Shown: positions 6,201 through 58,936 of the stretch, one piece after another | Layout: each line of letters opens with the position of its first letter | Numbering within the stretch: position 1 is the stretch's first letter | Source: Eledone cirrhosa | Lineage: Eukaryota | Assembly (NCBI GenBank): GCA_964016885.1 | Contig: OZ024741.1 | Location: 328,600,001 to 328,664,000 of the forward strand | Direction of reading: 5' to 3' | DNA: 64,000 nucleotides | Notes under the pieces: model-generated | The model's database searches: none | Told to the model about the DNA's origin: nothing | Seen by the model: only the letters and a program-made list of their open reading frames with translations | Translations under genes and position numbers: made by a program

Positions 6201-8882
6201 CGGTTCCTGTCAGACAGTTCAAAACGCTTGAACAGGTTGGTGAGGCTCTTGCACCCTCCTCCCCTCTCCTCTAATCCCACACAGTCCCAGCGTGCATCTA
6301 CGATCCCGTTCCAGTCGCCCACTAACACTAAAGAGCGGGACGTTCCAAGAAAGGTATCCAGACGCCGGAAGAAATCAGGCCGCCCTGCTCCTGTCGGGGC
6401 ATAGACGGGCACTAGCCTGAAAGCTTGCCCGTCTCCGCTGGTCACGTCCAGCACCACCGACGTACCCTCTGGGTCCAGGAAGATTGCCCGTACGGCGAGA
6501 TCCAAACCTCTCCGAAAAAGCACAGCAACTCCTCCCGGGGGAGGACGGCTGGGAGAAGCGTACAAACGTAGCCGCCGAAGATCGGTGCGAAGGCCCGTGC
6601 TTCGGAGATTCTGGTCTCTCTGATAGCCACTACATATATGTTTAGTGACCTGAGGTCGTTGAGGAGGTGGCCCTGCTTCCATGACGACCCCAAGCCACGC
6701 GCATTTATGCTGCCTATTCTGAGTGAGGTCATGTTGAAATGGAGTGGAAAAGATGGGAAAGACCACTTACCTTACTTCTCGTAGAGGAAGGATGGTTTAA
6801 CCATCCTTTTCACTGTTTCTGTCCTCCTCCGCAAGGAGTATCCTTATAAATCCTCCTGGAGAGTGCTTGTCGGAAGTCTCCGATGTCTTTGGGGAATTTT
6901 TGTTTTAGTGTCGTGTACATTTTCTGTGTGATGCGAGTGATTTGTATATGTGGAGGTGGTGTGAACGTTTGGGTCGTTGTGTAGTCTTTTTCTGTGAAGC
7001 TGGTGTTGTGTTGGATGTAGTGTAAAAATTGGTTTTGTTCAAATTTATTGCTGTGTAATGTGTATCGTTTTGGTTGTTTTGTTTGCGTTTGTTGTAGGTT
7101 TGTCTCTGTTTTGCTTTTTGGTGACGTTTGTGATGTTGGTGATGGTGGTGTTGGGGTTAATGATGGTGATGGTGTTGGTGTTTGTGATGATGGGGTTGGT
7201 GATGGTGGTGTGGATGGTGGCATAGCTGTCCTAACGTTTTTGTTTGATAGTTTATTTGTTTCCCTCTGTATTTTGTTTTTTTGGAAGGGGAAGGAAGGGG
7301 ATTCTTTCTTTTCTGGTTTCTTTTGTTGTTTCTTTCTGATACCGTTTCCAACTCCTCGACGTCTCAATCTGTCTCCAGTTGCGATAGGTCAGGGAGTGGA
7401 AAATTCTCCACAGGCGTTGGTTTTGGTTGTGGTGTGACGGATGGTGCAGGCGCTGGTGCTAGTTCTGGCGCGTTTGGTGGTGGTGGTGTTGGTTTTGCTA
7501 CTGTTGCTGTTACAGTTGCTTCTGTTTTTTCTGCCATTTCTGCTGCTGTGGTGTTGGTGATGGTGGTGTTGGTGTTAATGATGGTGTCACTGGGGTGGCT
7601 AAGAGCGGTGGCCTCAACCTTTTAGCCTGAGAGCAGAAAGCCCTTAGGTGGGTTCCTTCACCACAAACGACGCACCTAGGCCTTCTGCCCTCGACTATTA
7701 CGGTGAGGTGGCTGCCGTCAGTGAGGTCTATTACCTCTGGAATCTCCTAAATGCTTTTTTGGTCCGCTTGGATCAGGAGCTCCATACCAGATCCGGACCA
7801 GTTCTCCTGCTTTTCTTTCGCAATTTCGATTATCTTGGTGTTGGCTTCGATGCCGGAAAGGACGTCAGCCATAAGTCAGAGAATTTCGATGGCAGGTGGA
7901 ACGTGGGTCACCCTGATCTTCACGAGTCTCTGGCCACAATAGCTTGGGACGAGTGTGAAGTCGTTACTTCTTAATGGGGCCATGGAGTGTTCTCTGGCCT
8001 CCTGTGGTGTTTCAAAGAACACGTCCACGGTTCCATATTTCTGCCCACGTCTGATGTGGGTGTTTTTTTGCCCACACATGACCCAAAGCTTTTTGGATTT
8101 GGGACTCGGATGCCCGTTCCACTCGCCGCGATTTTATGTTAATCGTCCGATAAAACACGGTGCATAGGCGCCGATGCTCTATTTTATTAGGTGGGAGGTG
8201 AGGCTGACCATGTACCCATCTTTCTTTACCTCCTGAGTTACCTGGAATGCTTCGCACTTTTTTGCTACTCTGGCAAAAGACAGGGTTTTCTTATTCTCAT
8301 TGTTGCTGTTGTTGTTATCGTTATTTTTGTCATTGTTAATTTAGTTTCAGTTGCGGTGGTGGTGGGGTCAGTGGTGTTCGGTGTGGAAGAGTTCATTTTA
8401 GCTGAATTCGTTTCGATATCACAAGATAATTTATTTTTTATTTTGTTTCTGTTGTCGCTGTGCTGGTGGTGGGGGTGGCGGCTTCAACACCTGCAGTCAT
8501 TGGTAATGGCGGGAAATGAATGTCTGCCTGAGACAAATTTAAAATATTGCTACTGCTTATAGTTTTAGTGTTGGCAAACGTAGTAATATTTACAATGGTG
8601 GTGTCGGTGTGAGGTGTTAGTTTGTGAGGAAGGCTCTCAGCTACTGGGTTCAGCTGTCAGTCGGCCATGAATTTTCAAAGACTTTTTTTTTGTTTGATAA
8701 TTATAAAGGTTTAAATTTTGGGCTCAAGGACCCAATCTTTTTGAGTGTCCTTTTCAGAAAACAATGTGTGTGCACTTATATACAGTTAACAATAGCATTT
8801 TTCATAAATGGCAATTTTAAACAATTGAAAATAACAAACCTTTGCGGAGCTCACGATAATACGATTTACTATGTAGGTCGCC
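3281..8882 (-). mobile_element. L1/Tx1-type non-LTR retrotransposon, ORF1 type A, full-length but decayed
   Basis: 5' end GGCGACCTAC next to (TAA)n; ORF1 remnants; ORF2 fragments MTSLRIGSINARGL, LVGDWN, DQSKAFD, YADD, C-terminal Cys/His motif; 3' AATAAAGAAA; several internal deletions relative to the copy at 33390-36810. Confidence 0.93.
3522..6732 (-). pseudogene. Tx1 ORF2 (APE endonuclease + RT), frameshifted
   Basis: ORF pieces 6442-6732, 6110-6766, 4673-5308, 4367-4654 and 3522-4058 match the plus-strand copy. Confidence 0.9.
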
Positions 8883-14625: not shown

Positions 14626-15029
14626 CTTTGAAACTTGAGCAGTATCTTCGAGGAAACCTTACATGCTGAGCGCCTGCCACAAAAACTATAGCACTTACCG
14701 CATAATCTCAATGAAACCATCTCTTCAAGGCCACATTCAACAACGTTATCGACCCCAACATAAGCATGTGGAAACCAGATTATTTATATGTATGTATATG
14801 TATATGTTTTAATTGTTATACATTGGTGCCAGTGAAAAACACAAACCTGTTGGTTTTCATTTAAATGTATTATGAATATCTTAACATTTAGTTTAAATAA
14901 TTATTAAGATAGTTGAAAAACTAAGTATTCCCATAAAAGTCCTAATTAGTAGAACATATCCTTTTCAGAAAAAAACACTACACTAACGTATTGTCTGCAA
15001 ACTAAGCCCACAAATGGGTCATCAAATCA

Positions 15030-15613
15030 GTCTATTTATATCTTTTGATGCCTTCCGCATTTAGTGGGAATACTATGATGCATGTCTTAGCAGGAGGTAG
15101 TGGGAGGGAATAGCGGCGGTAGCGATAATGAGGCAGTGGTGGTGGTGGTGGTGCTATGCTAGTAGTACTTAGCAGGAGGTAGTGGGAGAGAATAGCGGCG
15201 GTAGCGATAATGAGGCAGTGGTGGTGGTGATGTGATCGTAGTACTGTAGTGATGGTGTTGAAGTTGAAATAGAAATATAAATTGAGGTAACTTGACTAAA
15301 GATTTTGGCGTGGTAGTGGTGATGGTGGCGGTGGTGGTATTGGTGGTGAAATTATTTGCCTGTCTGTCCACTTAGCCATTTTGCCATTTTTCTCTTTTTC
15401 GACTATAACATTTCTGATCCAAAATTAAATATTAAATATTGGGGCCCTATGACGTAAAGTGATGCGTTGTGGCTTGCTGATCGTAAAAATAAAAAAATAT
15501 ATAATCTTATACTTCATTTGTAATAAGAATTATTCTATCACAGTTGTTTTAAATAAGTAAAAATCAAAAACTTACGGGAGCGATTATATATCCACCATGT
15601 GCATTTTCTTCCC
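15030..15613 (-). mobile_element. Orphan Dong-type 5' leader with no coding body
   Basis: Shares GTCTAT..ATAT.TTTTGATGCCTTCC and AAAACTTACGGGAGCGATT with D1/D2 5' regions; internal tandem duplication of about 60 bp. Confidence 0.7.
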
Positions 15614-15675: not shown

Positions 15676-15676
<1 letters not shown>

Positions 15677-18600
15677 AGTTGCATTTATCTTGCTTTATGT
15701 TCATACGAGTTATCACCAAGTCACAACCAGTGACCTCAAGAGACAACAAGGTTCGCCATGTTCAAGAAAGAACATACATATTCACACATGCATCTTTAGT
15801 GTTTAGACTTGTGATGTACTTACATTGACAGAATCTTCCTCAGTATATGGGCAGTTCCCATTAGTACTATCTATTGTATTTCTCCTATACGCGGGTTTCC
15901 TGGGATTTGCGATAAGTAATCATTAGACCCCTTAGGTATCATTCCCAGAGCGCCTACAACCACTGGTATTGTTTTAGTTCTCAATTTCCACATTTTTCCA
16001 ATTTCTATCTCCAGGTCCTTATACTTGCTCAATTTTTCAAATGTTTTTATAGATACATTCTTGTCTATTGGAACAGACATATCAATTAGCAGGCATACCC
16101 TCTTTTGAAAGTCCTTCAATATTATATCAGATCCATTTGCATCTATTTTTTGGTCTGTTTGGATGCTAAAGTTCCACAAGATTGAGATGTGATCTTTTTC
16201 AAGTATGGGAGGTGGTTGATGCTCCCACCAATTCTTTTGATGGGGCAGGTCAAAATACTTACACATTATCCAATGTATGTATTGTGCAGCTCTGTCATGC
16301 CTGTTTAGGTATTCGGTTGGAGCTATAGGACTGCACATTGAAGTTATATGGTCAATGGTCTCTGGTTGTTTTTTGCATACACGGCATAATGGGCTGCATC
16401 CATTTTTTATTATGTTGGCTTGGTAATTTTTTGTTGGCAGACACTGATCTTGTGCTGATATAATCAGTCCTTCAGTCTCCGATTTCAGTCCTGAGGATGT
16501 TTTCTCAGGGTATTTTCCATACAGAGGCTTGTCTTGCCATTTCTTAGCCAGTTTCTGTAGCAGTTCTTTCTTTGCAGTTACTTTTACTTGCTTTGCTTTT
16601 TCTGTGTTTTCCATTTCAGCAGTAAATGGGACTTCTGAAATTTGTAGTTCATTACTGTATCTTTGTGCATCTTTTGTAATGGAATATGATCTTTTGGTGC
16701 TTTCATGTTTCAAAACGAGTTTGATCATCCAAACATGTGATTCCCTTAGATATGTAGATAATCCAATTGTTGCAGTTTTCAACGCAATGTCTAACTGGAT
16801 TGACCCACGTCCTCCTTCTTTCCTAGGGAGATATATTCTATCTATATCTGCCTTAGGGTGATGCATTCTGTGCATGGTTAAGAATTTTCGAATTTTTGTA
16901 TCGAGCCTACGGATCTCTGTGCTTGACCAGTTGATGACATTGTAACTGTAGGTTACTACTGGTATGGCAAGCGGGTTTATGGCATCGATCCTATTCCTTG
17001 CATTCAATTCCGTTCTTAAGATTGCTCTTACTCTGCGGTAACATTCCTTCCTTATCCTTTCCCTCATTGTCGAGTGCTTGATTCCGTCTCCTTCACAAAC
17101 ACCTAGATATTTGTAAATTTTTCCTTGATCAAGTTCTCTTATCACGTTCCCCCCGATCAAGATTAATGTCTGAACTCTTCAGCAGCTTTCCTCTGGTGAA
17201 CGTTGCTTTGGCGCATTTATCTAGTCCAAACTCCATTTTAATGTCATCACTGAACTGCTCCACAGTGGATAATAGCCCTTGCAATTGTTCATCATTTTTT
17301 GCAAATAGTTTCAGGTCATCCATGTAGAACAAGTGATTAATGGTTTTGTCATAGACTTTATATCCATGTTTTGTTTCATTGAGCATTTTACTTAATGGTA
17401 TAAGTGCGATGCAGAATAAAAGCGGTGATAAAGAGTCACCTTGAAAAATTCCACAATTAATATTAACTTCTCCAGCTTCCAGTGATTTTGTTTCACTATT
17501 CAAAAGGAGTGTCGTTTTCCATGTCTTCATACTGAATGACAAAAACCTCCTGACAACGGGGGATATTTTAAAAATCTCTAAACATTTTTCACTCCAACTG
17601 TGTGGCAAACTATCGAATGCTTTTTTATAATCTATCCAAGCAATCGATAGATTTTTGTGTCTATTATGACAATCTTCCAGTATCATTTTGTTAATCAAAA
17701 GCTGATTCTTACAGCCATATGAGCCTCGTTTACACCCTTTCTGCTCAATGGGAAATAGGTCATTTGTTATCAGGTGGTCATATGTGTATTCAGTTAGGAC
17801 TGATGTTAAAATGTTATACATTTTGGTCAAGCAAGTTATCGGTCTGTAATTTTTGGGATTGTTTGTGTCATCATTCTTCGGAAGCAGGAATGTAATGCCA
17901 TTAACTAGCCATGATGGTATCTTTTCTGGTTCCTTAACTATTTCATTGTAATGTTGGGCTAACAGCTCATGAGACTCTGTGAAGGCATTTATCCAAAAAT
18001 GTTGTATTTTGTCTTTTCCTGGGGATTTCCATTTGCTGTTTTTTCTTAGAGCCAAGCGCAACTGTTCAACTGTTATATTTTCCCATATTTGTTCCTCAAG
18101 GTGAGCTGTATCTTTCATTTGTCTGTCTATCCATGGGGCCTGTATGTTATGAACTTTTCCTTCGGCCCAGATCTTTTCCCAGAATTCTTGCACTTCCTCT
18201 TTGGGTGGTATTGATTTAGCAGTTATTGTTGACTTACCAATTTTTCTGTAGAAGTTTCTTTGGTTGTTTTTGAACATATTATTGTCCTTATAGAATCTAG
18301 ATCGTTTTTCAAAGCGCCTTATACGAGCAGATTTGGCCGACACTTTTTGCTTGATTATTTCTATCAGCATGTCTATGTCACTTGTTGATTTTATACTGTA
18401 CTTTCTTTTCAATGTTCTAACTTTAGTTTGTTTAACATGTTCACCTACTTTATAGTTTGTTAAAATTTCTATGTCAGATCGGAGAAGGTTTATTTGGCGA
18501 TTGATGTTCTCTTGCCAAGTAGATTTCTTGTGGGAATTCCTTTGTTTTTTCATCTTCACTCCACATAAGTGAGTGGTGACTTTAGCCGATGCATAATAGA

Positions 18601-20620
18601 GATGATTTAAATCAGTAATGTTTAGTTTGTTTGTGATGATAACGTTTTTGAGAATTATGTTAGTCTTGTGTATTATCTTTTGGTTCTGTTTGGAGTTCTG
18701 GATCTTAGGGAGGGTGTCTCGTTGCCCTATGTCATATTCTTTCATTTTCATCCATTCGATCATAATTTCATCCTTCAAGTTGGCAAGTTCATTCTCATTC
18801 ATTTCTTTATCATTTACGATCTCATTATTTTCATTTGGAGTTTCATCCTGAGCATGCACTCACTCCACTTTTTCGATCTTTTCTTTAATTTGTTCTGTTG
18901 CCAGTGATTCCGCCCCAACCCTGGGATTAGAAGTGTTACAATTTACTTCGTTTTCACTGACACATGTTTCATTTTCCCTTCGCTAACTTTGTGCTAATAG
19001 CTTGATCTGATCAATTTCTATATCAGTTAGTAACTTTTTTCTTACAATATTTCTTCGTATATTGGCTAGTTTGTTACTGTCAATATAGCCTCTGTTTTCG
19101 GGATGTTTCTTTTTCCAGTTGATATATGTCTGTTCTGTATTCGATGTATTTGATGGGTAGTACATGGCAGTGTAGAAAGCCTCAAGGACTTCTTTATTAT
19201 CTTCCCTTGACCATTTTTCTCTCTTTTTCTTTGGATTTCTTGGTGGTGAGCATGGAGGGCCAACAGTAGGAGTATTCCGGTTATGGGAGGTCTCCAGCTC
19301 CGAAGTGACGGGAAGGTTTGAACCATTAGCTGATTTTTCGACCCCAGTCTGGTTCCTCTCTGAGGGACGCGGCCCTTTTTTATCCGGGTGACGGCCGATC
19401 CGGTATGAGATTTTATCATTAGACATTTACTTTATTTTGTCGCGTTTTATCCTTATCCGCCAAGGGGTAATCATTTCGTGTTACCACTTCTAGAACGAGT
19501 GTCAACCAAGACTAGAGGGGTCGTTCTCCTCTAGAGACACGGCTATTCCCCGCCGACCGCCATCCCGGTATTTCTTGGTCACAGGCTTTATTTTTGTTGT
19601 TTTTTTTAAATTGTTATTATCATGAGTGGTTCCTTAATGTGAGCATTGCGTGGCTTAAGAATTAAATTATTAATAATTGTCTTCACTCCAGGCACAAGGC
19701 CAGCAATCACCCAGTACATTACAATAATATAATATACTTTTTGCTGAAGTTGCCTGTTATTGTTGTTGGCTATGTCGGTGGTGGTGCTGGGGCTTTTCAT
19801 ATTGTTGGTGAGGAAGGGGGGAGCCAGCAGTGCCATAGTTGTTGACGTTTGGCCGGTGGCCAGGTCACTAAGTCAATCTATTTATATCTTTTGCTAGCCT
19901 CTCCCTTGTCTAGTGATACCGCCACCTTCCCCTTTCTTAAGTTAACAGGGGAATAGTGGTGGTAGCAATAAAGGAGTGGTGGCGGCGGTGATGGGATAGT
20001 GGTAGCAATGATGGATGTAGTGGTGGCGGCGGTGGCGTTGTCGTTACTGAGTTTTGTGATATGTAGTATCTATGAGTTTGTGTCGCGTATGTTTAATATA
20101 TGTGTTAAATAGACTAGTTTTGTTTGATCTGTAGTATCTATGCGCTTGTGTCGCGTATGTTTAATATATATTGTGTTGACATATTCCCGTAAAATTGGAA
20201 TTAAACATTTTGTTAAAACTTGAGACAATAATAATAGTAATTATTATTATGATGCTCGGATTGGTGGTGGTGAAATTGCCGTTATCTGGCTGTTATATTT
20301 AGTGTGATGGGGTAGGTGGTGTATCAAGTTTCTGGTGTTGGTGAAATTGCTGTGATTTGGCTGTTCTATATAGTGTAGACAGAGGGTGTTTTCTTCCATT
20401 TATAACCATTTTCTTTTTTGAATACAAAATATATAATACAAAATTGAATATTTGAGCGATATAACAATATAATATGGATCCGAAATTTTATGAGACTTGC
20501 TTCGGTGGTTTATGCATCATTTTTACTAAGAATTGTTATTTCACAATTGATTTAAATATGTTAAAAATCAAAAACTTAAGGGAGCGATTTCATTACCTTC
20601 TACCACCACGTGCGTCTTCT
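15676..20620 (-). mobile_element. R4/Dong family D2, full-length
   Basis: 3' end abuts (TTA)n; ORF from ATG 19426 with Myb-like KWSRED..., RT (YMDD), CCHC and nuclease; about 1.2-kb 5' region homologous to the D1 leader, containing a short SINE-tail fragment near 19690. Confidence 0.92.
15820..19426 (-). pseudogene. Dong D2 ORF (Myb-like, RT, CCHC, restriction-like endonuclease), disrupted
   Basis: ORFs 18983-19426, 17129-18859 and 15871-17160 joined by frameshifts; premature stop at 15871; small deletion near 16500. Confidence 0.92.
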
Positions 20621-25800: not shown

Positions 25801-27742
25801 TAAATTTAGGATGTCAACCGAATCTTGTCCTAGCCCGTCAGCATTCATCTCCTCAGTGGCCGTATCTCTGTTCCAGGTATTATTTATCTCAGTATTCAGA
25901 TCATTGTCTGCTTCGGGTGGTTCTTCCGTTCTCAGGACCTCCTCACCTTCATTTCCCGCCGGCTCGCTTGTCTGGCATACTACACCCGCCATCTCCAAGC
26001 CATCTCCAAGCCATTCTCTCTGCTCAGTTCCTCCAGTTCCAGCTCGCTTATCCACCCATTAGTTCTTATTACCCGAGCCTGCCCGGCCAATTTTTGTTCA
26101 TCTAATTTAAATAAACCAATCTCGTTCCAGATGTTATGCATCCGTCTCCTGTAGCCCCTCTCCTTGGGGTTACTTTTCAGGTAGCATTGCATAACAGTTC
26201 TATTCAATTATTTCGTCCAGTTGGTTCTGGCCCCTTTCCTTCTTCTTCTTCCTCCAACATCAGCAGTATTTGGTTGACAGTCAGGTTCCTGCTGCTGAGC
26301 CAGGGGTCACCTGTTGGGTGAGAGTCTGTCACATGACGTTCTAGTCTCCATTTCACCGTTATTCGAACTGTTTATGTTCGATATTTAAACACTCTTATCG
26401 AGGATTGGCGAATGTATGTTTACATAGCCATCTGTGGATCCGCCATCCCACTTGGCCCTTGTGTGGCATTATCACCACGCTGTATACGGACACACATAAA
26501 CAAACAAACACACGGGCAGAAAGGGCCCCAAAAATGAATAAGCATAAGTTTCATTGTAATGTAGTATTCGAATGTCTGACTTAGTTTTTGTTTTTTAAGT
26601 TTTACTTTTTCCCCCCTCTTCTCTGTCCGTCCGCCTGCTTCTCTCTTCATTCTTATTTTCTTTACGTTTTTGGGGTTTCTTTTTTTGTTTTTGTTTTTCT
26701 CTGTTTGTTTTTCTCGTTTTTTGCTGTTGTTGCTGTGCTGCTTTTGTTGTTTGTTTTTTCTTTTTTCTTTTGAGTCTATCTATATATTTTGATGCCTTCC
26801 TCTTTGTTAGTAGTAGGAATTCTATAATGTGGAAGTGGCAGCCAGCAGAGACTGGCGGCGTTGGCGATACTGAGACAGTGGTGGTGGTGATGTCGATACC
26901 GAGGCAGTGGTGGCGGTGATGCGACCGTATTACTGTAGTGATGGTGCTGTAGCGGTGGCAGCAGCAGTGAAGGAGTCAAGGGGTGGTGGCGGCGGTGATG
27001 GGATAGTGGTGGTAATGATGGCCGTAGTGAGCGGTGGCGGTGAAGGTGAAAATGCTGTTGTGTCTAGTGTACACAGATGATGGGGTGGGTGGTGTATCTA
27101 GTTTCTGGTGTTGGTGAGTTTAGCTGTCCTATATAGTGTAGCCAGAGGAGAGGAGGGGGGGGGTTCTTCTTCTTCCATTAATAGCCATTTTTTATTTTTT
27201 TTTTTTGGATATACAGTGTACAATACAAAGTTGAATATTTGAATATTTGAGCCGTATTACTGTAGTGATGGTGCTGTAGCGGTGGCAGCAGCAGTGAAGG
27301 AGTCAAGGGGTGGTGGCGGCGGTGATGGGATAGTGGCGGTAACGATGGCCGTAGTGAGCGGTGGCGGTGAAGGTGAAAATGCTGTTGTGTTTAGTGTACA
27401 CAGATGATGGGGTGGGTGGTGTATCTAGTTTCTGGTGTTGGTGAGTTTAGCTGTCCTATATAGTGTAGCCAGAGGAGAGGAGGGGGGGGGGTTCTTCTTC
27501 TTCCATTTATAGCCATTTTTTTTTGGATATACAGTGTACAATACAAAGTTGAATATTTGAATATTTGAGCCTTATAATAATATATTTTGGGTCCGAATTT
27601 TTTTGGGGCTCAAGCCGGGTGCTTTACGTAGCATTTGTACTAAGAGTTGTTATTTCACAAATGATTTAAATGTGTTAAAAATTCAAAGCTTACGGGAGCG
27701 ATTTCATGACCTCCGAGCGATTTCATGACCTCCGTCACCTCG

Positions 27743-27743
<1 letters not shown>
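22873..27743 (-). mobile_element. R4/Dong family D1, full-length, disrupted
   Basis: Collinear with 54319-58850; stop near 26208, 11-bp duplication near 26000, frameshift near 23290; tandem duplication of about 320 bp in the 5' region (26924-27570). Confidence 0.95.
22947..26351 (-). pseudogene. Dong D1 ORF
   Basis: ORFs 25980-26207, 23263-26055 and 22947-23252 reconstruct the same protein as 54393-57785. Confidence 0.93.
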
Positions 27744-27811
<68 letters not shown>

Positions 27812-27812
<1 letters not shown>

Positions 27813-29853: not shown

Positions 29854-29922
<69 letters not shown>

Positions 29923-32355
29923 GGCGACCTACATAGTAAATCGTATCATCGTGAGCTCCGCAAAGGTTTGTTATTTTCGTTTGTTAAAAATTGTCATTTA
30001 TGGAAAATTTTATTGTTAACTGTTTATAAGCGCACATACATTGTTTTCCGAAAAGGACACCCAAAAAGATTGGGGCCTTGTGCCCAAAATTTAAACTTTA
30101 TTATTATCAAAACATTTCTTTGAAAAAAATGGCTAATTCACATCTGCACCAAGCAGCTGAAAGCCTTCCTCACAAATTAACACCTCCAACCGACACCACC
30201 ATTGTAAATGTTACTACGTTTGCCAACACAAAAAAAAATATAAGCAGTAGCAATATTTTAAATTTGTCTCAGGCAGACATTCATTTCCCGCCATTACCAA
30301 TGACTGCAGGTGTTAAAGCCTCCACCACCACCACCACCGCGACAACCACCACCCCCACCACCACCGCGACAACAGAAACAAAAGAAGAAAAATATAAATT
30401 AACTCGTGATGTCGAAATGAAATCAAGCAAAATGGACTCTTCCCCACCAAAGACGACTGACGTCACCACCACCACAACTGAAACTAAAATTAATATTAAC
30501 ACAAATAACGATAGCAACAACAACAACAATGACATTATAAAAACGACCCTCAGTTTTGCAATAGTAGCAAAACAGTTCGAAGCATTTACGGTAACTCAGG
30601 AGAATTTAGAAAATGCCAAACAAATGGTAAAGAAAGATGGGTACAGGGTCAGCCTCACCTCACCCCCCCCCCCCACACACACACACCTAATAAAATGGAG
30701 CATCGGCGCCTATGCACCGTGTCGTATCGAACGATAAATGTAAAATCGCGCCGAGTGGAACGGGCATCCGAGTCCCAAATCCAAAAAGCTTTGGGACATG
30801 TGTGGGCAAGAAAAACCCACATCAGACGTGGGCAGAAGTATGGAACCGTGGACGTGTTCTTTGAAACACCAGAGGAGGCTAGAGAACACTCCATGGCCCC
30901 ATTAAGAAGTGACGACTTCACACTCGTCCCAAGCTATTGTGGCCAGAGACTCGTAAAGATCAGGGTGACCCACGTTCTACCGGCCATCGAAATTCCCTGG
31001 CTAATAGAGGCTGTCCTCGCCGGCATCGAAGCCAACACAAAAATAATAGCAATAGCAAAAGAAAAGCAGGAGAACTGGTCCGGATCTGGGATGGAGCTCC
31101 TGATCCAAGCGGACCAAAAAAGCATTGAGGAGATCCCAGAGGTAATAGACCTCACTGACGGCAGCCACCTCACGGTAATTGTCGAGGACAGAAGACCTAG
31201 GTGTGTCGTTTGTGGTGAAGGAAACCACCTAAGGGCTTTCTGCCCTCAGGCTAAAAGGTTGAGGCCACCTCTCCTACCCACCCCAGTGACACAACCATCA
31301 ACACCACCAGTAGCAGAGATGCCAGCAACAACTGTAGCAGCAACAACAGAAGCAACTATAACAGCAACAACCCCAGCAACAGTAGCAAAACCACCACCAC
31401 CTCCACCACCAGCAAAACCAACACCACCACCACACAACGCTTCAGAACTAGCACCAGCGCCTACACCATCCACCACGCCACAACCAAAACTAACGCCTGT
31501 GGAGGATTTTCCACTCCCCGGCCTATCACAACTGGAGACAGATTGTGACGACGAGGAGTGGGAAACGATATCCGGAAAAAAAAAAGAAACCAAAAAAGAA
31601 AAAATTCTCTTCCTTCCCCCTCCAAAAACAAAATACAGAGGGAAACAAATAAACTAAGAAACAAAAAAGTTAGGACAGATATGCCACCATCCACACCAGC
31701 ATCACCAACCCCATCAACCCAAACACCAACACCATCACCATCATTAACTCCAACACCACCATCAGCTACACCACAAAAGTCACCAAAATGCGAAACAGAA
31801 ACAAACCCACAACAAACGCAAACAAAACAAAACAACCAAACACACTACACAGCATTAACTTTGCCTTTCATCCTTACGGGGTCGATAAAATAAAGTACCA
31901 GTAATGTACTGGGTAATTGCTGGCCTTGTGCCTAAAGTAGAAACAATTAAATTTGAACAACAAGCAATTATTACACTACATCCAACACAACACCAGCATC
32001 ACAGAAAAAGACTACACAACAACCCAAAATTCACACCACCTCCACACATACAAATCACTCGCATCACACAGAAAACGTACATGACACTAAAACAAAAATT
32101 CCCCAAAGACATCGGAGACTTCCGACAAGCACTCTCCAGGAGGATTTATAAGGACATCCTTCCTGAGGAGGCCACAAGCAGTGAAAAGGATGGAAAAACC
32201 GTCCTTCCCCTACGAGAAGTAAGGTAAGTAGTCTTTCCCATCTTTTCCACTCCTTTTCAACATGACCTCACTCAGAATAGGCAGCATAAATGCGCGTGGC
32301 TTGGGGTCGTCATGGAAGCAGGGCTACCTGCTCAACGACCTCAACGACCTCAGGT
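29923..32355 (+). mobile_element. Tx1 type A 5' part (5'UTR, ORF1, first about 90 nt of ORF2)
   Basis: Same 5' end as the 3281-8882 copy; ORF1 from ATG 30129 with RRM-like region and CVVCGEGNHLRAFC knuckle, frameshifted at homopolymers, ending LPLREVR at 32227. Confidence 0.92.
31857..31949 (+). mobile_element. 5'-truncated Nin-core SINE inserted in Tx1 ORF1
   Basis: AACTTTGCCTTTCATCC...GAAACAATT is absent from the homologous position of the minus-strand Tx1 copy; ATTAA on both sides may be a target-site duplication. Confidence 0.85.
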
Positions 32356-37059: not shown

Positions 37060-37108
<49 letters not shown>

Positions 37109-40100
37109 GAATGCCATGGTTGACGGAGGCTCGGCTCTGTAAGGTATAGTACTTTTTAACAGCTATAACAATTGTAAATTGTTTAAAACTTTAACCAAAT
37201 TGTAGATAAAAACACCCTCCTCCTCATGAGAGGGGTCTTTCTGTCCGTTATTTGGCCCTTCGGGGTTAAATAACCGCTTATTGGGGTTTTGTGCCCAATA
37301 TTCATTTTAAACCCAAAAAAAAACGTGACTACAAAAAAGAATTTTCACCAGTCACTCCCACTCATTCTGTCTTCTTCCTCAATCGTCACTACATCAGAGA
37401 GAAGATTGTCTTTCTTCCTCCCTTCTCTAAATGTGGTGTCGCCTATTTCGCAAGCGACGCCATTAAAGAAAAAGAAAAAATATAGTTTCTGGTAGCTTTC
37501 ACCAAGAGAACGTGCATTCCGTGAAACATTTCTCCACGACGACGACAACGACAAAAAATGTGTGCGGTAAATACGGAAAACCATTTCATTCGTCTGACGT
37601 CATGAAGAATAGCAGCAGCAGCCGTAATAACAGCAGCAGCAGCAAGAGTAACAAGGAAAACACGAGTAGCAGCCGCAACAACATCAGCAGCAGCATAAAC
37701 GACAACAGCAGCAGTAGCAACAGCAACAACAACAGCAGCAGCAGCAACATCAACAACCACAGCAATAGCGGCGGCGGCGGTCGTAGTACCAGCAGCAACA
37801 ACAAAAGTAACAGCAGCTCTGACGACAACAACAACAACAAGAAAGAAAAACCAATCTCGTTTCCAGGTATCGCAAAGAACCTGGAAACCATCCTTATAAT
37901 AAATGAGGAATTACAAGAAGCAAAGAAGATGGTGACGAAAACCGGACACCGAGCAATCTGCAAGGCAGCCGAAAAGTTTTTCGAAACCCAACAGCACTGT
38001 ACGGTCACGTACCGTACAGTAAGCACAAAATCACGTAGGGTTGAAAGAGCCACAGAGGCTCAAACACAAAAAGCCTTAGGGTCTGTGTGGCAGTGGAAAA
38101 CGCATATCACCCGAGGCAAGAAATATGCCACCGTGGACGTGCTTTTTGCCACACCCCAGGAGGCAAAGGCTCAATCCTTAGTGACCCTAAGGAGCGAGGA
38201 AATTGTGTTGGTGCCCTCCTACTGCGGGCAAAAAATTGTGAGAGTCAAACTGACCCCCAGCACACACACCCTGGATGGCCCCTTCTTGGCTGGCCGCGTC
38301 TGTCCTCGTCGGAATCGAGGACAAAAGAACTGTACTGAAAGTACAAAAAAAGTACGAGAAGATTGGGTCGGCTCCTCCACTGAGATCTTAATTCAAACCA
38401 ACCAGGAGTGCATCGAAGCTATCCCGGATGTGATAGACTTCGATAACGGCACTCAACTGCCCATAAGTGCTGAGGGCAAACGCCCGAAATGCTTTCGCTG
38501 TGGGTCGAAGACTCACCTCAGGGCCTTCTGCAATGAGAAGAAGCTGAGAAAGGAGAAAACCCCCCCTCCTTCCGAAACCGGCTCCAGTGCTACCAGCAAC
38601 AGGACAGGCGGCAAGCAGAAAGGATAGGTCCGTGGCACCCATACACACGCCACGGAAATCAAGAACAGCAGCAGCAGTGGAAGTATTAACAACAACAACA
38701 GTAATACCAACTGCAGCTGCAACAGAGAATCCACTGCAACCATCACGAACAAGAACAAGTGAAAGAGTGGAGCTGGTACCCCTCTCCGACCTCACAGAAT
38801 CGGACATGGGGTGTGAGGTGGGAGAGGGAGGGCAAAAGGTCGCAAGAAGGCACAAACTAAAAGCAGCGCATCGTCGCCTTCGAAAAGGCAGGGAAGAAAT
38901 GAAAAAGGGTAAAGGCTACTGCAAAGAGACTTACAGCAGCAACACCACCAACACAATCACCACTCACACTAGTACCACCATCACCAACGGCGGCAACCCC
39001 ATCGCCAGCAACAACAACACCTTCACGACACCAGGCACCAACATCGCAAACACAACAACAAAACACACACACCCAGCAACAACGACAAGAAAATAGCAGA
39101 ACCACACCCCACCCCCAGAAAAAGAAATGCACAACAATAAATACACACAACAAGAAACTAATGACTTACATAATTGAACACAAACATTTCACAGCACGAC
39201 TACATAATACCAGCACCAATCAAAACACCAACGAACATAAGACTGGTAAGAATAGCACAGAAACAATACACAAACATTAAAATAAAATTCCCCAACGCAG
39301 TTGGTGATTTCAGAGGCTTAGGAGGGACACTCAACCGGTGGGTATATTCGGATATACTCACAGAACAGCCGACGACCAGCCGAAGGGACAATTCAACGGT
39401 CCCTTCACCAGACGATCAAGTGGAAAGGGATGGAGAAACCATCCTTCCTCTACGAGAAGTAAGGTAAGTGGTCTTTCCCATCTTTTCCACTCCATTTCAA
39501 CATGACCTCACTCAGAATAGGCAGCATAAATGCGCGTGGCTTGGGGTCGTCATGGAAGCAGGGCCACCTGCTCAACGACCTCAGGTCAATAAACATAGAT
39601 GTAGTGGCCATCAGCGAGACCAGAATCTCCGAAGCACGGGCCTTGTCACCGATCTTCGGCGGCTACGATGAGTACGCATCTCCCAGCCGTCCGGGATCGG
39701 GGGGAGGGGGGGAGTTGCTTTGTTTTTTCGGAGAGGTTTGGATCTCGCCATACGAGCCATCTTCCTGGACCCAGAAGGTAAGTTGGTGGTGCTAGACGTG
39801 ACCAGCGGAGAGGGGCAAGCTTTCAGGCTAGTGGCCGTCTATGCCCCGACAGGAGCAGGGCGGCCTGGTTTCTTCGGCGTCTGGAGAACTTTCTAGGAAC
39901 GTCCCGCTCTTTAGTGTTAGTGGGCGACTGGAACGGGATCGTAGATGCACGCTGGGACTGTGTGTATTAGCGGAGAGGGGAGGAGGGTGAAAGAGCCTCA
40001 CCAACCTGCTCAGGCGTTTTGAACTGTTTGACAGGTACCGATTACATTTCCCAAATGTGCCAATGTGGACTTGGACAAATCGCATAGGGTCATCCAGATC

Positions 40101-42622
40101 ATATCTAGATAGAGTATTTTGTATGGAAATAGATAGGTCTAGCATAGGCTGTCCACAATTCAAGATAGTCAGCTACACGGACCACAAATTCGTGATCTGT
40201 GTGCTTGACTTAGATAGGCTTCATAGACGAGGACCCGGCTACTGGAAGCTAAACGCATCCTTACCAGCGCGTAAGGCCTATAGAGAGCGGATTAGCGAAA
40301 AGTAAGGCGAGCGTTGACGGGGGCCATCGTCAGCAACACGGGGTGGTTTGCTCTGAAAAGAGCGTTTAGAATAGAGTCCATTAGGTTTAGTAAGACTTTA
40401 GCTATAGAGAAAAATAGAGCAGAGGGAGAGCTAGTTAGAAAATTAGACAAGGCGCTTAGCAAAGGCATCGCGACCGACGTACTTGCGGCGAAATTGGCCC
40501 TTGACCAATTCTTCAATGCAAAGCACGAAGGCTGCGTTGTCAGAGCTAGGGTGCGTGCTCTCAGACACGGGGGGACGAAAGCCGTTCAATGGGCCCGAGT
40601 GGCGGAGGCGCGTCGTGGCAACAAAGCTACGATCTGGTCTTTGGTGGACCACGACAGGCGCATGCTACTCGATCACGGGCAAATGTGTGAAGCTTTTCAG
40701 CGACACTTCGCTCAGCTATTCAGGGGCAGCAGCGAGCCGGATTGAGGGATGGACTTTAGTGTCTACCTCGACGGACTGCCGCGGCTCTCAGCCACTGAGG
40801 CGGAGTGTTGCGAAAACCCGATAACAGCCGCTGAAGTACGGGAGGCAATGACTGGCTGCACAAGGGGTAAATCGCCTGGTTTGGATGGTCTGCCCTATGA
40901 ACAGATGCCAGATTTGTTCGGAGGCCTCTTGGTGGACGTCTACTGAAACTGGCAACAGAACGTGAGAATGCCTAGCTCTGTGAGCCGAGGAGCGGTGGCA
41001 CTGCTGAGAAAGGATCCGAACAAGGGGTATAACATAGTTAATTTCAGGCACATAACTCTGCTAAACACAGAGTTCAAGATTTTGGCCAAGCCGCGCGAAC
41101 TAGGATGCGGAAGTTCCGTGTCAGCATATGCGGACGATGTCACCGTAGTGGTCTCGAACGCCAAACATATCGAGGAGATCGGCACTACACTAAGAGAATA
41201 CGAAACGGTGACAGGAGCAATGACCAATCAGGAAAAGTCAGTGGGCCTGCAGCTCGGCACCTGGAGAGGCAGGTCCATTCCGTCCAACAGCGTCGTCGGG
41301 CGCTGGACGGAGGGACCGGTTAAATTGCTAGCGGTCTGATTCGGTCCGGACCTCCAGACGGACAAAAACTGGACCGAGGTGATGAGCAGGGTGGCTTCTC
41401 TCATCCTGAAATGGGCAGAGAGGAAGCTATCCCTGAAAGGTCGAGTGATGGTGGCTAACGCGTACATGCCATCCGTCATCTACTACCGCCTGACCGTCGT
41501 ACGTTGTCCTAAGCCCCGCCTGACTACGCTGGAGCGTTTGCTCTTTCGTTTTTTGTGCAAGGGACGCGCTCCGATGGTCAGGCGGTCTATCTGCTGTCAT
41601 CACCCGCTACGTAGAGAGCTGGGCATGCCGTGGATGATGATGCGCAGACACGCGCTCAGGCTACGACATCTCCACCTCTTCCTCGACGGTGATCAGGTGT
41701 GGTCGTCGTTTGCTAGACGCATCTTTCCCCAGCTTGTCTACTTGACGGAGCTGCAGTCCTGGGTCAAGCGAAGACCGAGAGGGAGCGCTTGGAGATTGGA
41801 ATGTCTTCAGGCGCTCACAGCCCTCGACCAATCGGGCAATGTGATCGGTGGAAACTCCACCTTGGCGTTCTATAGAGGATTAGTGGAGGGGAAGTGCGAC
41901 GACGTACTTGGGGAAACTCTAGGCGGCGTCGAAAATCAACTAGCCAATCTCGACGGAAGAACTTTCGGGCCGGGGCCTATGCACAACTTCCAGAAACCCC
42001 TGGCCTGGCAGTGCTACCGAGGAGCTTTGCTAGTTTGGGATAAACTCTAAAGGCATGGAGGTGCCGTCAGCCGGGAATGTCCGAGATGCGCGCAGGGCGA
42101 CGAAACCGTCCTGCACGCACTCGTCCAGTATCCGAGCATTTCTGACTTGTGAGTTTATGTCGAACACCTGCTGTCGCGTGTAGGACGGATCCAGCTATCA
42201 GCTGAGTCCATCACTTACCTCTTCGGTGATGCCCTGATTAACTTTTTCAAATTTCATTTGAAAAGGAAAATCAGGGTAGAAAGGGAAGTGCTCTCTTCCC
42301 AGCATTTTGTTGAAAGATGGGTGAGAGAGGCAAGAATGACCCGAGTGAATGGGCCTACTCTGAGTATGTAAATTAAAGGTGGAAAACTGGGAGAGGGCAC
42401 TTGCCCTGGTGGTCAGGGTCACTGTGGCTTTTTAATGGGCTTTTTCCACGAATGTCCCTAGGAAGTCTCCCCCGATTTGGGGAATTTGTCATTGTTATTT
42501 TTTAGTTACATCCTCTGTTTTTGTTTTTTACACGCATAAATGCCCGTTTGTACCGTCCTGTATTGCCCTGTACTGTCCTTAATGTCTACTTTATATAAAC
42601 CCTTATGGTTAATAAAGAAAGA
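37109..42622 (+). mobile_element. Tx1 type B, full-length, decayed
   Basis: Starts after (TTA)n; ORF1 with Ser/Asn-rich N-terminus and CFRCGSKTHLRAFC; ORF2 from 39502 with frameshifts, a deletion of about 420 bp at 41090 and another at about 42212; ends AATAAAGAAA. Confidence 0.93.
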
Positions 42623-42792
42623 ATTATTATTGTTCTTTTTTTCTTCTTCTGCCTCCTCCTTCTGCATCATTCTTAAATTAGAAACGATTATTTGAAGCTA
42701 ATATATGTGTGTGTGTGCTTTCCCCTCCCAAATATTACTGAATTTGTGCCTGCACTAGATATCATTATTGTGGTCGTTTGCATTGGAAAACA

Positions 42793-48909: not shown

Positions 48910-48972
<63 letters not shown>

Positions 48973-49123
48973 ATACTTTGGGAGGGTCATGTTGCCAATA
49001 AGAAACACACGCACCAGTTGCTTTCACTTCAATTTAATTTATTAAATATTTATAAATTTACAAATTTATAAATTTCTGGTTGGTTGGTTGGTTCCACAAC
49101 CAGATAGTTGTTTATATATATAT

Positions 49124-49168
49124 AGTCATAGTTCTTTCGTCACACACTCTGTGACCTCTTCAGTGACT
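49124..49168 (-). ncRNA. Hammerhead ribozyme motif, mirror copy
   Basis: Reverse complement of 51284-51328. Confidence 0.85.
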
Positions 49169-49473
49169 GGGGATTTCTTTCTTCGTTTCTGTGCCTTTCC
49201 TTTCTTCTATCCTACGCCATTTTGTTTGTGTGGGGGTTGCGTGCTCAGTTTGCGCATGCGCCACATCCGGGTGTCTGTGTGTGTTTGTGTTCATTTTTCT
49301 ATTTTTCTATTTATATTTTTCTATTTGTTTGTTTATTTATTTATTTATTGTTGGTTGGTTGTTTGTTCTATGTGTGTGTGTGTTTTCATTTTGTCTTGTG
49401 TGTGTTTTCATTTTGTGTGTGTTTTCAATTGTAAGTTGTTTGTTCTATGTGTGTGTGTGTTTTCATTTTGTCC

Positions 49474-54318: not shown

Positions 54319-57300
54319 CTTTGAATCTCAGTCATTGATGTTGGTTAACTGGAAAGTCCGTTGGATTGAATATCAAGCCACTACCTGCAGCCTCAGATAT
54401 TCAGGACGTATCGGTGGGTTCTTGCTGTTCCAAGCAAGCATGCCTTTTGAAGCGTTCCAAAAAGCGTGAAGGGGCCGATTTTCTTTAACCATCCCTGGAA
54501 ACCTTTGGAGATAGTCCCCAGTGCGCCTATGACAATCGGGATCACTTTGACTTCATGGCAGTTCCAAATCCTTTTCACCTCCCACTTTAGGTCCTGGTAT
54601 CGGTTAATTTTCTCCCTCTCCTTCTCTTACACTCTCGTGTCGAACGGGCAGGCCACATCCACAATCAGGCACGATCTTTTTTCTTTGTCCACAACCACCA
54701 GGTCAGGTCTATTGTGTTCCAGTTTTTTGTCCGTCTGTATCCTAAAATCCCACAGCACCTTCACCTGACTGTTCTCCATCACCGCCTCTGGCCTATGCTC
54801 ATACCATTTCTCAGAATGTGGTAGATTGTTTACTTTGCACAGGTGCCAGTGGATCACCCTGCCCATCACATCGTGTCTCCAGCCCTTATAGTGGGTCTGG
54901 GCTAGGTGTTTACACTCGGACACAATGTGAGCCACAGTCTCCTCTCTCTCTCCACAGATCCTGCACAGTGGGCTAGCCTCCTCCTTGTAGATATGGTGCT
55001 TCAACCACTTCGTTTTGAGGGCCTGCTCCTGCGCAGCCATTAGCATTCCTTCTGTAGCCTTTTTGAGGTCTCCTCTTCTCAACCAGTTCCATGTCTGTGG
55101 ATCTCTAAATTCAGTTTTCTCAAAGAAGGTACTATGAAGGGATTTTCCCTTAAGGCTGCTCTTCCTCCTTGATGTTATTTCCACCTTGGATATCCCCTGG
55201 CCTACTGTCCCCTCCTTCAGTACAGCTCTGAGCATTGGCTCCTTACTATAGGTCACGTATTTGTATAGGTTGTTTTTCTCCATCTGAACACAGTCCTCTA
55301 TGCTGATAAGACCTCTTCCACCCTCAGATCTCCTTAGGTAGAGTCTATCGACATCACTCCTCTTGTGGAACATGTTGTAGATAGTCAATATCTTCCTAGT
55401 CTTCCTATCCATTTCTTTTTGTTCAGCAACATTCCATCTCAGAATTCCCGCACTGTACCTAATAATAGACACAGCTCGGGAATTTACTGCGCTTATGGCA
55501 TTTCTGCTGTTCAGATGTGACTTCAATACGCTCCTTACTCTCCGAATGTATTCAGTTCTTAACAATTCCTTCATTTTTTTGTTCTTTATGCCATCAGCCT
55601 CCAGAACGCCCAAATACCTGTATCCTTCCTCAGAGTCAATTTCCTTTATCATCTCACCTGTTGGTATCTGGATCCCGTTACTTCTGCTCAACCTACCCCT
55701 CTTCATCACAATGACTCCACATTTACCAATACCAAACTGCATACGTATATCACTGCTGAAAATACGGACAGTGTCAACAAGCACATCCAACTCCTTCTCA
55801 CTTTTCCCGAAGAGCTTAAGATCGTCCATGAAGAGGAGGTGATTGATGGTAAGCTCTCCCCTTCCCAACTTGTATCCTGCTCTCACTTTTCGCAGCATAA
55901 TGGTCAAGGGCATCAGGGCAAGGACAAACAACAAAGGGGACAGGCTATCTCCCTGGAAGATACCTCTCTTGATCTTCACGCTTCCCAAGGATACTCCAGT
56001 TGATGTCAACTCTGTCTCCCAGGACCCCATACTCCTGTCCAGCAACTGTCTGACGTTATCTGCCACCCTGAAGATCTCCAGGCTTTTGGTGATCCAGGAA
56101 TGAGGCACCATGTCAAATGCCTTTCTGTAGTCTATCCATCCCATGGCAAGATCAGTGTGTCTCCTCCTGCAATTCCCCATTACCATCTTATCAATAAGCA
56201 ACTGGTCCTTTGTACCACGTGACTTCTTTCGGCATCCTTTCTGTTCGTCCGGTAACAAGTTGTTTGTGTGGAGGTGATGGTAGATTTCCTCAGACACAAT
56301 GCTCGTCAACAGTTTCCACATTACGGGCAGACATGTGATAGGTCTATAGTTGGTAACATCATTACCCTTGATTCGGTCTTTCATTATCAGAACTGTGGTA
56401 CCTTTTGTCAACCACTCTGGCACCTCACCCGACACCAAGCAGTCATTGAACATGGCCGTCAGCTTCGGGTGGAGGGATGTTAAATGTTTAATCCAATACC
56501 CCTGCACACCATCTGGGCCTGGTGATTTCCAGTTGGTTAGTTTTTTGGCTTGCCCCTTAAGAGTTTCAACTGTGATACTCAAATCAGTCTGTTGTTGTGC
56601 CTGCTCACCGATCTCCCTCTGTACTGTCTCAATCCACCCTGCCTGGGCATTGTGTCTAACATCCTGCTCCCATATTCCTCTCCAGAATGTTTTAGCTTGT
56701 TCCGCCCCAGGGATCAAGTCGTTGCCTCTTTCTTTCCCCTCAAGCTGTCCAAACAGCATCTTCTGGTTGTTGTCGAACATGCGGTTCTGTTTATACTGAC
56801 TGACTCTGTTCTCGTATCGCCTGATTTTGGCACTCTTTGCTACAATGCGTTGCTTCAATTCCTCTATGATAATATTTAGCTTTTTACTCCTAGTTTTGTA
56901 TTTTATTTCCAGTCTATTTTTAGTGCCTATGTTTTTTAGTGTCCCATTCAGTAGTGACTCAAGCTTTCCTATGTCATTTCTCATTTCCCCGATTTGCCCA
57001 CTCAGTCGCTTCTTCCACCACGGCTCTGCTCTTTCTTGTCTGTTGTTTCCTCTCGCTTTTATACCAAGTAGTTTCCTCACCGTATTTGCTGTTGCTTTGA
57101 GGATATTGTTGCACTGGTGAAGACTCCTCGCCTCAAGGTATGGGATGACTTTGTTTACCTTAGCTGTTGTTTCTTTTAACTTTTTCCTGTCTACAAATCT
57201 TAGGTTCATAGGTCTCCCACTATCATTGTTCAACTCATCTACCACTAAATTTAGGATGTCAACCGAATCTTGTCCTAGCCCGTCAGCATTCATCTCCTCA

Positions 57301-58850
57301 GTGGCCGTATCTCTGTTCCAGGTATTATTTATCTCAGTATTCAGATCATTGTCTGCTTCGGGTGGTTCCTCCGTTCTCAGGACCTCCTCACCTTCATTTT
57401 CCGCCGGCTCGCTTGTCTGGCATACTACACACGCCATCTCCAAGCCATTCTCTCTGCTCAGTTCCTCCAGTTCCAGCTCGCTTATCCACCCATTAGTTTT
57501 TATTACCCGAGCCTGCCCGGCCAATTTTTGTTCATCTAATTTAAATAAACCAATTTCGTTCCAGATGTTATGCATCCGTCTCCTGTAGCCCCTCTCCTTG
57601 GGGTTACTTTTCAGGTAGCATTGCATAACAGTTCTATTCAATTCTTTCGTCCAGTTGGTTCTGGCCCCTTTCCTTCTTCTTCTTCCTCCAACATCAGCAG
57701 TATTTGGTTGACAGTCAGGTTCCTGCTGCTGAGCCAGGGGGCACCTGTTGGGTGAGAGTCTGTCACATGACGTTCTAGTCTCCATTTCACCGTTATTCGA
57801 ACTGTTTATGTTCGATATTTAAACACTCTTATCGAGGATTGGCGAATGTATGTTTACATAGCCATCTGTGGATCCGCCATCCCACTTGGCCCTTGTGTGG
57901 CATTATCACCACGCTGTATACGAACACACATAAACAAACAAACACACGGGCAGAAAGGGCCCCAAAAATGAATAAGCATAAGTTTCATTGTAATGTAGTA
58001 TTCGAATGTCTGACTTAGTTTTTGTTTTTTAAGTTTTACTTTTTCCCCCCTCTTCTCTGTCCGTCCGCTTGCTTCTCTCTTCATTCTTATTTTCTTTACG
58101 TTTTTGGGGTTTCTTTTTTTGTTTTTGTTTTTCTCTGTTTGTTTTTCTCGTTTTTTGCTGTTGTTGCTGTGCTGCTTTGGTTTTGTTGTTTGTTTTTTCT
58201 TTTTTCTTTTGAGTCTATCTATATATTTTGATGCCTTCCTCTTTGTTAGTAGTAGGAATTCTATAATGTGGAAGTGGCAGCCAGCAGAGACTGGCGGCGT
58301 TGGCGATACTGAGACAGTGGTGGTGGTGATGTCGATACCGAGGCAGTGGTGGCGGTGATGCGACCGTATTACTGTAGTGATGGTGCTGTAGCGGTGGCAG
58401 CAGCAGTGAAGGAGTCAAGGGGTGGTGGCGGCGGTGATGGGATAGTGGTGGTAATGATGGCCGTAGTGAGCGGTGGCGGTGAAGGTGAAAATGCTGTTGT
58501 GTTTAGTGTACACAGATGATGGGGTGGGTGGTGTATCTAGTTTCTGGTGTTGGTGAGTTTAGCTGTCCTATATAGTGTAGCCAGAGGAGAGGAGGGGGGG
58601 GGCGTTCTTCTTCTTCCATTTATAGCCATTTTTTTTTTGGATATACAGTGTACAATACAAAGTTGAATATTTGAATATTTGAGCCTTATAACAATATATT
58701 TTGGGTCCGAATTTTTTGGGGCTCAAGCCGGGTGCTTTACGTAGCATTTGTACTAAGAGTTGTTATTTCACAAATGATTTAAATATGTTAAAAATTCAAA
58801 ACTTACGGGAGCGATTTCATGACCTCCGTCACCTCGTGCGTCTTCTTCCC
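54319..58850 (-). mobile_element. R4/Dong family D1, full-length, nearly intact
   Basis: (TTA)n on both sides; 5' leader of about 1.07 kb; single long ORF. Confidence 0.96.
54393..57785 (-). pseudogene. Dong D1 ORF (Myb-like, RT FMDD, CCHC, PD-D..K nuclease) with one nonsense mutation
   Basis: 1052-aa ORF stops at 54627-54629 (CAA>TAA relative to the copy near 23180); frame continues to RYVLNI at 54393. Confidence 0.95.
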
Positions 58851-58870
58851 TATTATTATTATTATTATTA

Positions 58871-58936
<66 letters not shown>

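Follow-up and report, generated by a model that had tools for sequence, protein, structure and literature searches.

How two deeply separate kinds of non-LTR retrotransposons come to begin with the same 5′ leader is the question raised by a 64 kb stretch of the Eledone cirrhosa genome (hereafter the window), which is a nest of both kinds within TAA/ATT microsatellites. One kind, referred to here as Tx1, is of the APE type, and the other, Dong/R4, is of the RLE type. A sequence-only reading had proposed that a promoter/first-exon module was exchanged between them, and the proposal was followed up in the window and in the 3.0 Gb genome of which it is part. The account that we consider probable is that the leaders of Tx1 and Dong/R4-type elements are one and the same 5′ UTR by descent, which was likely captured once from an old Tx1 and set ahead of Dong's own UTR, was afterwards likely handed from one deep Dong lineage to another, and likely acts as an internal RNA polymerase II promoter.

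The Tx1 kind has an ORF1 and an ORF2 with APE, RT and a C-terminal zinc motif. The Tx1 copy at 32373-37058, with which Tx1-B is 92% identical, encodes APE, RT and zf-RVT, and the Tx1 ORF2 of locus L183 contains Exo_endo_phos, RVT_1 and zf-RVT, with L1 ORF2p as its best PDB matches. The Dong element D1 has a single ORF in which RT is followed by CCHC, RHD and PD..D nuclease motifs (read as motifs); Pfam finds RVT_1 in it and no Exo_endo_phos, and the best PDB matches are R2 proteins. Both labels are kept from the sequence-only reading and are presumptive: a protein search for the Tx1 label returned three proteins, none of them named Tx1, and the RT tree was built with unnamed homologs only. Dong is present in the window as two lineages, F1 (with D1) and F2 (with D2), whose RTs share ~35-47% amino-acid identity; the F2 ORF has no blastn match to the D1 ORF, yet their 5′ regions are 77% identical over 459 nt. 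The coordinates of these elements are collected in the table.

Table. Elements, leaders and microsatellite tracts of the window (positions counted from its first nucleotide)
Feature	Positions	Strand	Remarks
Tx1-B (TB) 5′ leader/UTR	37109..37330	+	the most diverged of all leaders in the family; core GCTCTGTAAG at 37134-37143
Tx1-B element, APE-RT type, decayed	37109..42640	+	92% identity with the 32373-37058 copy
(ATT)16 target/tail, upstream of TB	37061..37108	+	
Tx1-A (TA) leader up to the ORF1 ATG at 30129	29923..30131	+	
Second TA leader	8670..8882	-	heads the Tx1 copy 3281-8882
Dong F1 (D1) leader, putatively captured	58617..58850	-	core GCTCCCGTAAGT at 58812-58801
D1-leader ATG, putatively homologous to the old Tx1 ORF1 start	58619-58617	-	
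Dong F1, full length	54319..58850	-	ORF 57818-54627: RT, CCHC, RHD, PD..D motifs; APE absent
D1-type leader with tandem 5′ duplication	27252..27744	-	heads the F1 copy 22873-27744
Dong F2 (D2) leader, putatively captured	20390..20620	-	after (AAT)/(AAG)n and into F2 in 25/25 loci
Native Dong 5′ UTR kept in F2	19440..19590	-	73-76% identity to L339/L340/L353/L364; covariation with outgroup Dong
Dong F2, full length	15676..20620	-	RT lineage distinct from F1
"Orphan" (OR) leader	15016..15613	-	3′-truncated copy, older F1-type Dong subfamily
(TAA)n tract between the F2 3′ end and D1	58851..58936	no strand	
Tracts like the (TAA)n at 58851..58936	15617-15675, 20650-20720, 27745-27812, 29854-29922		

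Within Tx1, TA (29923-31863) and TB (37109-38490) are ~92% identical in ORF2 DNA and differ in their leaders and ORF1s (ORF1 ~45-54% at the amino-acid level), a pattern that reads as 5′ swapping within Tx1. A weak MBD-like match is seen in the TA ORF1 (30533-31657; E 0.005-0.007, below the cut-off). The window also holds a near-perfect palindrome (97%) of 2.5 kb at 48965-51487, centered on a 278-bp tandem pair, and copies at 3071-3275 and 8896-9099 of an abundant non-coding 200-nt repeat that occupies the same ATT tracts at many loci. A fragment of the latter repeat lies inside the D2 spacer (19656-19722).

The motifs quoted in the sequence-only reading for five leaders are all present in the sequence, those of D2 (from 20620), the orphan (from 15613) and D1 (from 58850) on the minus strand and those of Tx1-B (from 37109) and Tx1-A (from 29923) on the plus strand. 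Used as queries, the leaders each yielded 1466-1793 first-look candidates, figures that should not be taken for copy numbers. In 137 of the 140 loci that were fetched, the leader runs on into the body of its family. The microsatellite in front of it has a constant orientation, ATT before 55/55 Tx1 (TA/TB) leaders and AAT/AAG before 81/85 Dong leaders, and these flanks also record the target specificity of Tx1 and the TAA-repeat insertion of Dong. For TB, (ATT)n precedes the leader and the TB body adjoins it in 30/30 loci, with an A-rich ATGG at +214..+220 in 25 of them; for TA, (ATT)n before the start and an ATG at +207..+209 were found in 25/25. Moreover, full-length copies across many chromosomes begin at the same few bases. 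Because of the body continuation and the consistent (ATT)n or (AAT)/(AAG)n flanks, all five leaders are true family 5′ ends. The sequence-only reading had allowed that the module might be an independent small element inserting beside both families, and the orphan leader, which stands in the window without a body, would suit such an element. The chance of this is next to nil, since every leader variant goes with a single type of body and a single orientation of the microsatellite, and since loci that continue into a body do not fit a SINE-like unit with its own tail and body-free occurrence. The orphan itself comes from an older Dong subfamily of F1 type and is a truncated copy of its 5′ end; a D1-like body follows leaders of its type in 27/30 loci.

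Homology between the Tx1 and Dong leaders had been argued from Tx1-B, and this direct pair turned out to be weak. Over 120 nt, TB and D1 align above chance (z 4.8, 0/1000 dinucleotide shuffles; z 3.1, 9/1000 block shuffles), and TB and D2 reach z 1.8 (53/1000 block shuffles). With a profile of 15 Dong leaders, TB scores 3.7 bits or not at all, against a reversed-background maximum of 4.9, and it is undetected by an old-Tx1 profile as well. It is through other families that the proposed shared ancestry was borne out. The Dong core, sought in Tx1 orientation, has 331 overlapping matches, versus 0 in the reversed control; it occurs in a family (TC) with Tx1 ORF1, APE and RT on the same strand in 8/8 fetched loci, and the search uncovered a further Tx1 family (TD, one locus). 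A group of 30 old ATT-flanked leaders has same-strand Tx1 coding in 20, none in nine, and same-strand Dong coding in one, which carries an AAT flank. Old Tx1 copies are fragmentary, and old Dong copies with leader and near-complete bodies are those of L269-L271, L273 and L274. A Dong-only profile detects 11/11 old Tx1 leaders at 17-61 bits (4/15 planned rows were left out, their anchor having been missed), the highest score anywhere in 1.35 Mb of reversed DNA being 4.9; it gives TC 18 bits, TD 14.6 (core only) and TA ~6. Three old Tx1 leaders score 35-40 bits with a profile built on four young Dong leaders, and the TA leader scores 19-25 bits with the old-Tx1 profile.

In alignments, old Tx1 and Dong copies are 69-75% identical over ~170 nt (75% at aligned positions for Tx1 L309 and Dong L294), and with the core removed L309 still matches four old Dong leaders at z 12-22. 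TB is linked in through TD (z ~12) and TA (z 3-6). The alignment extends from the core (~+25..+45) to an A-rich ATGGA(A/G) at ~+210..+230, which is the Tx1 ORF1 ATG, and collinearity stops at the old Tx1 ORF1 start. With these families other than TB, the alignments strongly confirm that the Tx1 and Dong leaders are related by common descent. Chance or convergence on a short host motif within AT-rich sequence could be invoked for the young TB-D1 pair (only z ~3 with block shuffles) and for TD, which resembles Dong mainly in the core, and it is possible for parts of the TB-D1 match. As a general explanation it is extremely improbable and is refuted for old Tx1 versus Dong, whose similarity persists over ~170 nt with the core taken out and whose older copies are closer to each other than the young ones.

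The ATG at ~+210..+230 opens ORF1 in TA and TB (open frames reach 570 aa in TA), and no conserved frame follows the leader ATG in Dong. The sequence-only reading had seen in the ATGGCTA of Dong, with the C/A-rich sequence after it, a resemblance to a decayed ORF1 start. The match of ATGGCTA to Tx1-A is coincidental, since at this place older copies of Dong have ATGTTTA or ATGGTTA. The Dong counterpart of the old Tx1 ORF1 start in the alignment is a second ATG, 10 nt further downstream, and ATGGCTA is a derived upstream ATG. Nor did a decayed ORF1 come to light past the ATG. Five Tx1 ORF1 probes gave no tblastn match at E<0.01 in 85 Dong 5′ regions, and nucleotide similarity is weak, with z <3 in 48/56 Tx1-Dong pairs (1/9 Dong rows left out) and higher values mostly in CCA-repeat rows.

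The direction of transfer was approached with an outgroup of 80 Dong-related loci from metagenome contigs, on which the leader profiles found nothing (best 7.0 bits, E 0.53). In the 13 of these loci with a visible AAT-type flank, ~135-310 nt precede the projected ORF start (by subtraction); leader-bearing Dong elements have ~1050 nt or more ahead of the ORF. A remnant of the native Dong UTR lies directly before their ORF, 0.1-1 kb downstream of the leader: D2 19580-19480 and L340/L353/L364 share 73-76% identity (with the L190 copy, E reaches 1e-10), the old F1 element L271 is 80-85% identical to L364/L365/L340 in this region, and the remnant of the old L270 begins ~90 nt past the leader ATG. 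Since outgroup Dong lacks the leader and the native UTR survives inside, the leader is an addition to Dong with Tx1 as the likely donor. The suggestion that Dong captured a Tx1 5′ end is thereby supported, and on this comparison the transfer likely ran from Tx1 to Dong; Tx1-B and Tx1-A are not the donors, the closest being an older Tx1 lineage. Gains at the front end recur in the Dong group, since an outgroup element on the F2 side (L389:84-167) begins right after the microsatellite with a tRNA-like head (Rfam tRNA, 30.3 bits), as does L342:10-95 (by eye); capture of a Pol III head is possible in both.

Transfer from Dong to Tx1, or from a third source to both, for example a first exon of the host or an element now extinct, was weighed against this direction. 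The leader tree has no outgroup, and at L181:762-1124 (G000:C2, ~324243260-324243620) an old Tx1-type leader precedes the 2A-like peptide GDVESNPGP together with a PHD finger (Pfam E 1e-4, below the cut-off), a combination described as typical of other APE clades of CR1/L2/Ingi type (PMC3708506). It was seen in 1/16 related loci and is probably a nested fragment, possibly a third clade bearing the leader. These points leave room for the reverse or third-source history, which is nevertheless very unlikely given the short, leaderless UTR of outgroup Dong and its remnant inside, the greater diversity of Tx1 than of Dong leaders, and an ATG that opens ORF1 in Tx1 and no conserved frame in Dong. 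In the leader tree (177 AT-rich columns, midpoint root, 2/33 rows left out), a branch (99/97) has all 14 Dong leaders to one side of it, and the Tx1 leaders show the greater depth.

A Tx1-to-Dong transfer is followed, in the trees, by movement among Dong. In the leader tree D1 pairs with D2 as its sister (100/99), and the F2 leaders do not form a clade (monophyly rejected, p-AU 0.00135); in the RT tree, monophyly of F1+F2 is rejected (p-AU 0.0003) and outgroup elements fall between them. The 5′ module is discordant with the RT tree, in the manner by which recruited 5′ UTRs are recognized, and this discordance indicates that the leader was exchanged between Dong lineages more than once. It is thus likely, judging from these trees, that the leader later passed between two deep Dong lineages.

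As for the mechanism, the presumably captured piece is ~220 bases long and heads two distantly related Dong lineages, and Tx1 occupies the same TAA repeats. Read-through from a neighbor would not simply fuse the two, because they face opposite ways in the microsatellite. Instead, a TAA/AAC-like tract immediately downstream of a Tx1 ATG may have received a Dong element in sense orientation, and a chimeric RNA driven by Tx1 could then have been copied in cis, amounting to 5′ transduction; RT template switching would be an alternative route. Either way, the Tx1 leader would have been placed ahead of the native Dong 5′ UTR and later exchanged between Dong lineages. A relic (AAT)3+ tract in the spacer (window ~20250, minus strand) is present in 23/25 D2 and 15/35 old-leader loci and in 0/30 D1 and 0/30 OR loci; such a tract fits a sense-insertion capture. 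Three loci taken up as capture intermediates (L303, L304, L306) turned out to be internal deletions.

What the leader does is suggested by its position and composition. An internal RNA polymerase II promoter is the simplest reading, and a likely one, because of its extreme 5′ position, its origin in an L1-group UTR, the uniform starts and the lack of a consistent fold (z -2.9 to +1.0). A 14-nt core, YGCTCYCGTAAGTT, is kept across eight leader groups, the rest having drifted to ~60% identity, and would bind a host factor, either a transcription factor or U1 snRNP. It lies 26-43 nt from the 5′ end depending on the family, and is therefore not a fixed-spacing DPE; its lower divergence within families was set aside because copies had been picked as best matches. 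The core contains GTAAG in 111/115 TB/D1/OR/D2 loci and in 0/25 TA loci, and GTAAGT fits the 5′ splice consensus. The cross-clade transfer of the proposed promoter/first-exon module stood, and its first-exon part did not. A pattern search of Dong leaders, covering ~56% of possible acceptor starts, for sequence lost right after the core gave 26 matches versus eight in the control, only two of which are leader copies, with deletions and with neither junction ending at AG. Splicing at the core is unsupported because this search gave no spliced retrocopy lacking a GT..AG intron from the core donor. Contigs aligned to D1 and D2 showed no joint at the core donor, with no usable baseline for truncation points; one contig set, under a second organism code, covers parts of both regions. 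U1 binding without splicing is possible. No ribozyme or snRNA match was found with Rfam on the leaders, the outgroup loci and the D2 native UTR, and an HDV-like ribozyme descriptor matched 0/140 own loci and also 0/36 outgroup 5′ ends, so that it had no working positive control. Eight outgroup elements (L350, L351, L352, L356, L358, L360, L361, L362) share, in the first 300 nt after (TAA)n, a 5′ motif that is conserved, contains repeated units and appears to be structured, a candidate for an as yet undescribed ribozyme; the four of the eight loci that were scanned had no Rfam match for it.

The native UTR remnant inside F2 has properties of its own. It covaries with the outgroups (95% of cells paired, 11/28 pairs compensatory, among six related rows only), at a level reached in 0-1/500 shuffles; a single-sequence fold of the window's copy gives z -0.1, which counts against strong structure in that copy. 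An (AAT)4 no more than 30 nt from the native UTR of F2 marks 36 distinct loci, a hand count from 92 overlapping matches. Of these leaderless starts, 23 fall at an A-run directly before the first helix, two at a longer A-run, seven upstream and four downstream; 30 internal F2 starts among loci fetched for other reasons are scattered, with none at the native-UTR edge. Because these 36 loci start at or near the native UTR, the leader is not strictly required. In a tree, most of 20 leaderless copies are intermixed with 23 leader-bearing ones, a sample biased to the window's D2 and with 2/25 D2 loci left out, and seven of the 20 form a young group (93/91) with no leader-bearing member. For leaderless copies as one clade, p-AU is 0.11, with eight changes versus a shuffled mean of 14.6 and one long row. 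Starts at the native edge may reflect RNA processing, an exonuclease stop, A-microhomology or a leaderless sub-lineage.

These observations could be turned against a promoter function. The leader captured from Tx1 might act at the RNA level, through U1 binding or as a first-exon donor, in stability or in translation, or be a passenger, with Dong RNA arising from read-through and being defined by the retained native structure. The prevalence of GTAAG outside TA, the compensatory pairs, the preference for the native edge in 23/36 loci and the self-cleavage of Bombyx mori Dong and Ascaris R4 at their 5′ ends, as described in PMC3774820, speak for it. It is nonetheless unlikely: no spliced retrocopy was recovered in the pattern search of Dong leaders, GTAAG is absent in 25/25 TA loci, the leader has no consistent fold, leader copies seem far commoner than native-edge starts (1637 first-look candidates, which are not copy numbers, vs 36 loci), and the A-run at the native edge is microhomology to the target that could itself produce the start peak. 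A bolder extension of the promoter account would have a portable promoter module cross the deepest non-LTR split, from APE to RLE, in a shared microsatellite niche and then be traded among Dong. F2 would have two modes, with a captured Pol II promoter upstream and, ~1 kb inside, a retained ancestral self-processing RNA of no Rfam class that yields leaderless copies, including a self-spreading young sub-lineage. We offer this as a tentative idea of rather low probability. Altogether, the favored reading is that of a 5′ UTR shared by descent and likely to serve as a promoter.

RLE elements tested so far are excised from host co-transcripts by a 5′ ribozyme, according to PMC3774820, and the gain of an L1-group 5′ UTR documented here shows one way in which an element of this type could acquire transcription of its own. 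It shows, too, that clades occupying the same target can exchange parts. Moreover, the 14-nt core offers a ready test for a host promoter element across the eight leader groups, and leader-bearing and leaderless F2 copies provide a natural comparison of promoter and ribozyme modes.

Each of the two partners has described counterparts. Like B. mori Dong and Ascaris R4, for which PMC3774820 describes self-cleavage by an HDV-like ribozyme at the exact 5′ end, the Dong elements here have a single ORF with RT and restriction-like nuclease motifs and a TAA target; unlike them, they have at their 5′ end, ~1 kb ahead of the ORF, an unstructured AT-rich leader of probable Tx1 origin. The Tx1 elements share two ORFs, an APE-RT-zf ORF2 and a strict target preference with the target-specific Tx1-clade elements described in PMC4640811, but their ATT microsatellite target is shared with Dong in opposite orientation and they are the likely leader donor. 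In Octopus vulgaris, Dong-R4 and L1-Tx1 are listed as recently active (PMC13282606), the same two groups being co-active in one genome; the words "UTR" and "promoter" do not occur in the main text of that paper. No APE-to-RLE 5′ capture was found in the literature searched, the scope of which ended short of Repbase reports and most subscription papers. The closest parallel is mammalian L1, whose 5′ UTRs are internal promoters that have been recruited repeatedly, according to PMC3600994. There, families swap or recruit 5′ UTRs so that 5′ and ORF2 trees disagree, as the leader and RT trees do here, and young 3′ ends recruit older 5′ ends. Such 5′ swapping is also seen here within Tx1, between TA and TB. 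Recruitment of 5′ UTRs within L1 is thus already known, and within the literature searched the cross-clade APE-to-RLE case is new: unlike in L1, the module has crossed the divide between APE and RLE elements and later changed hands between two Dong RT lineages, and the recipient retains part of its own UTR.
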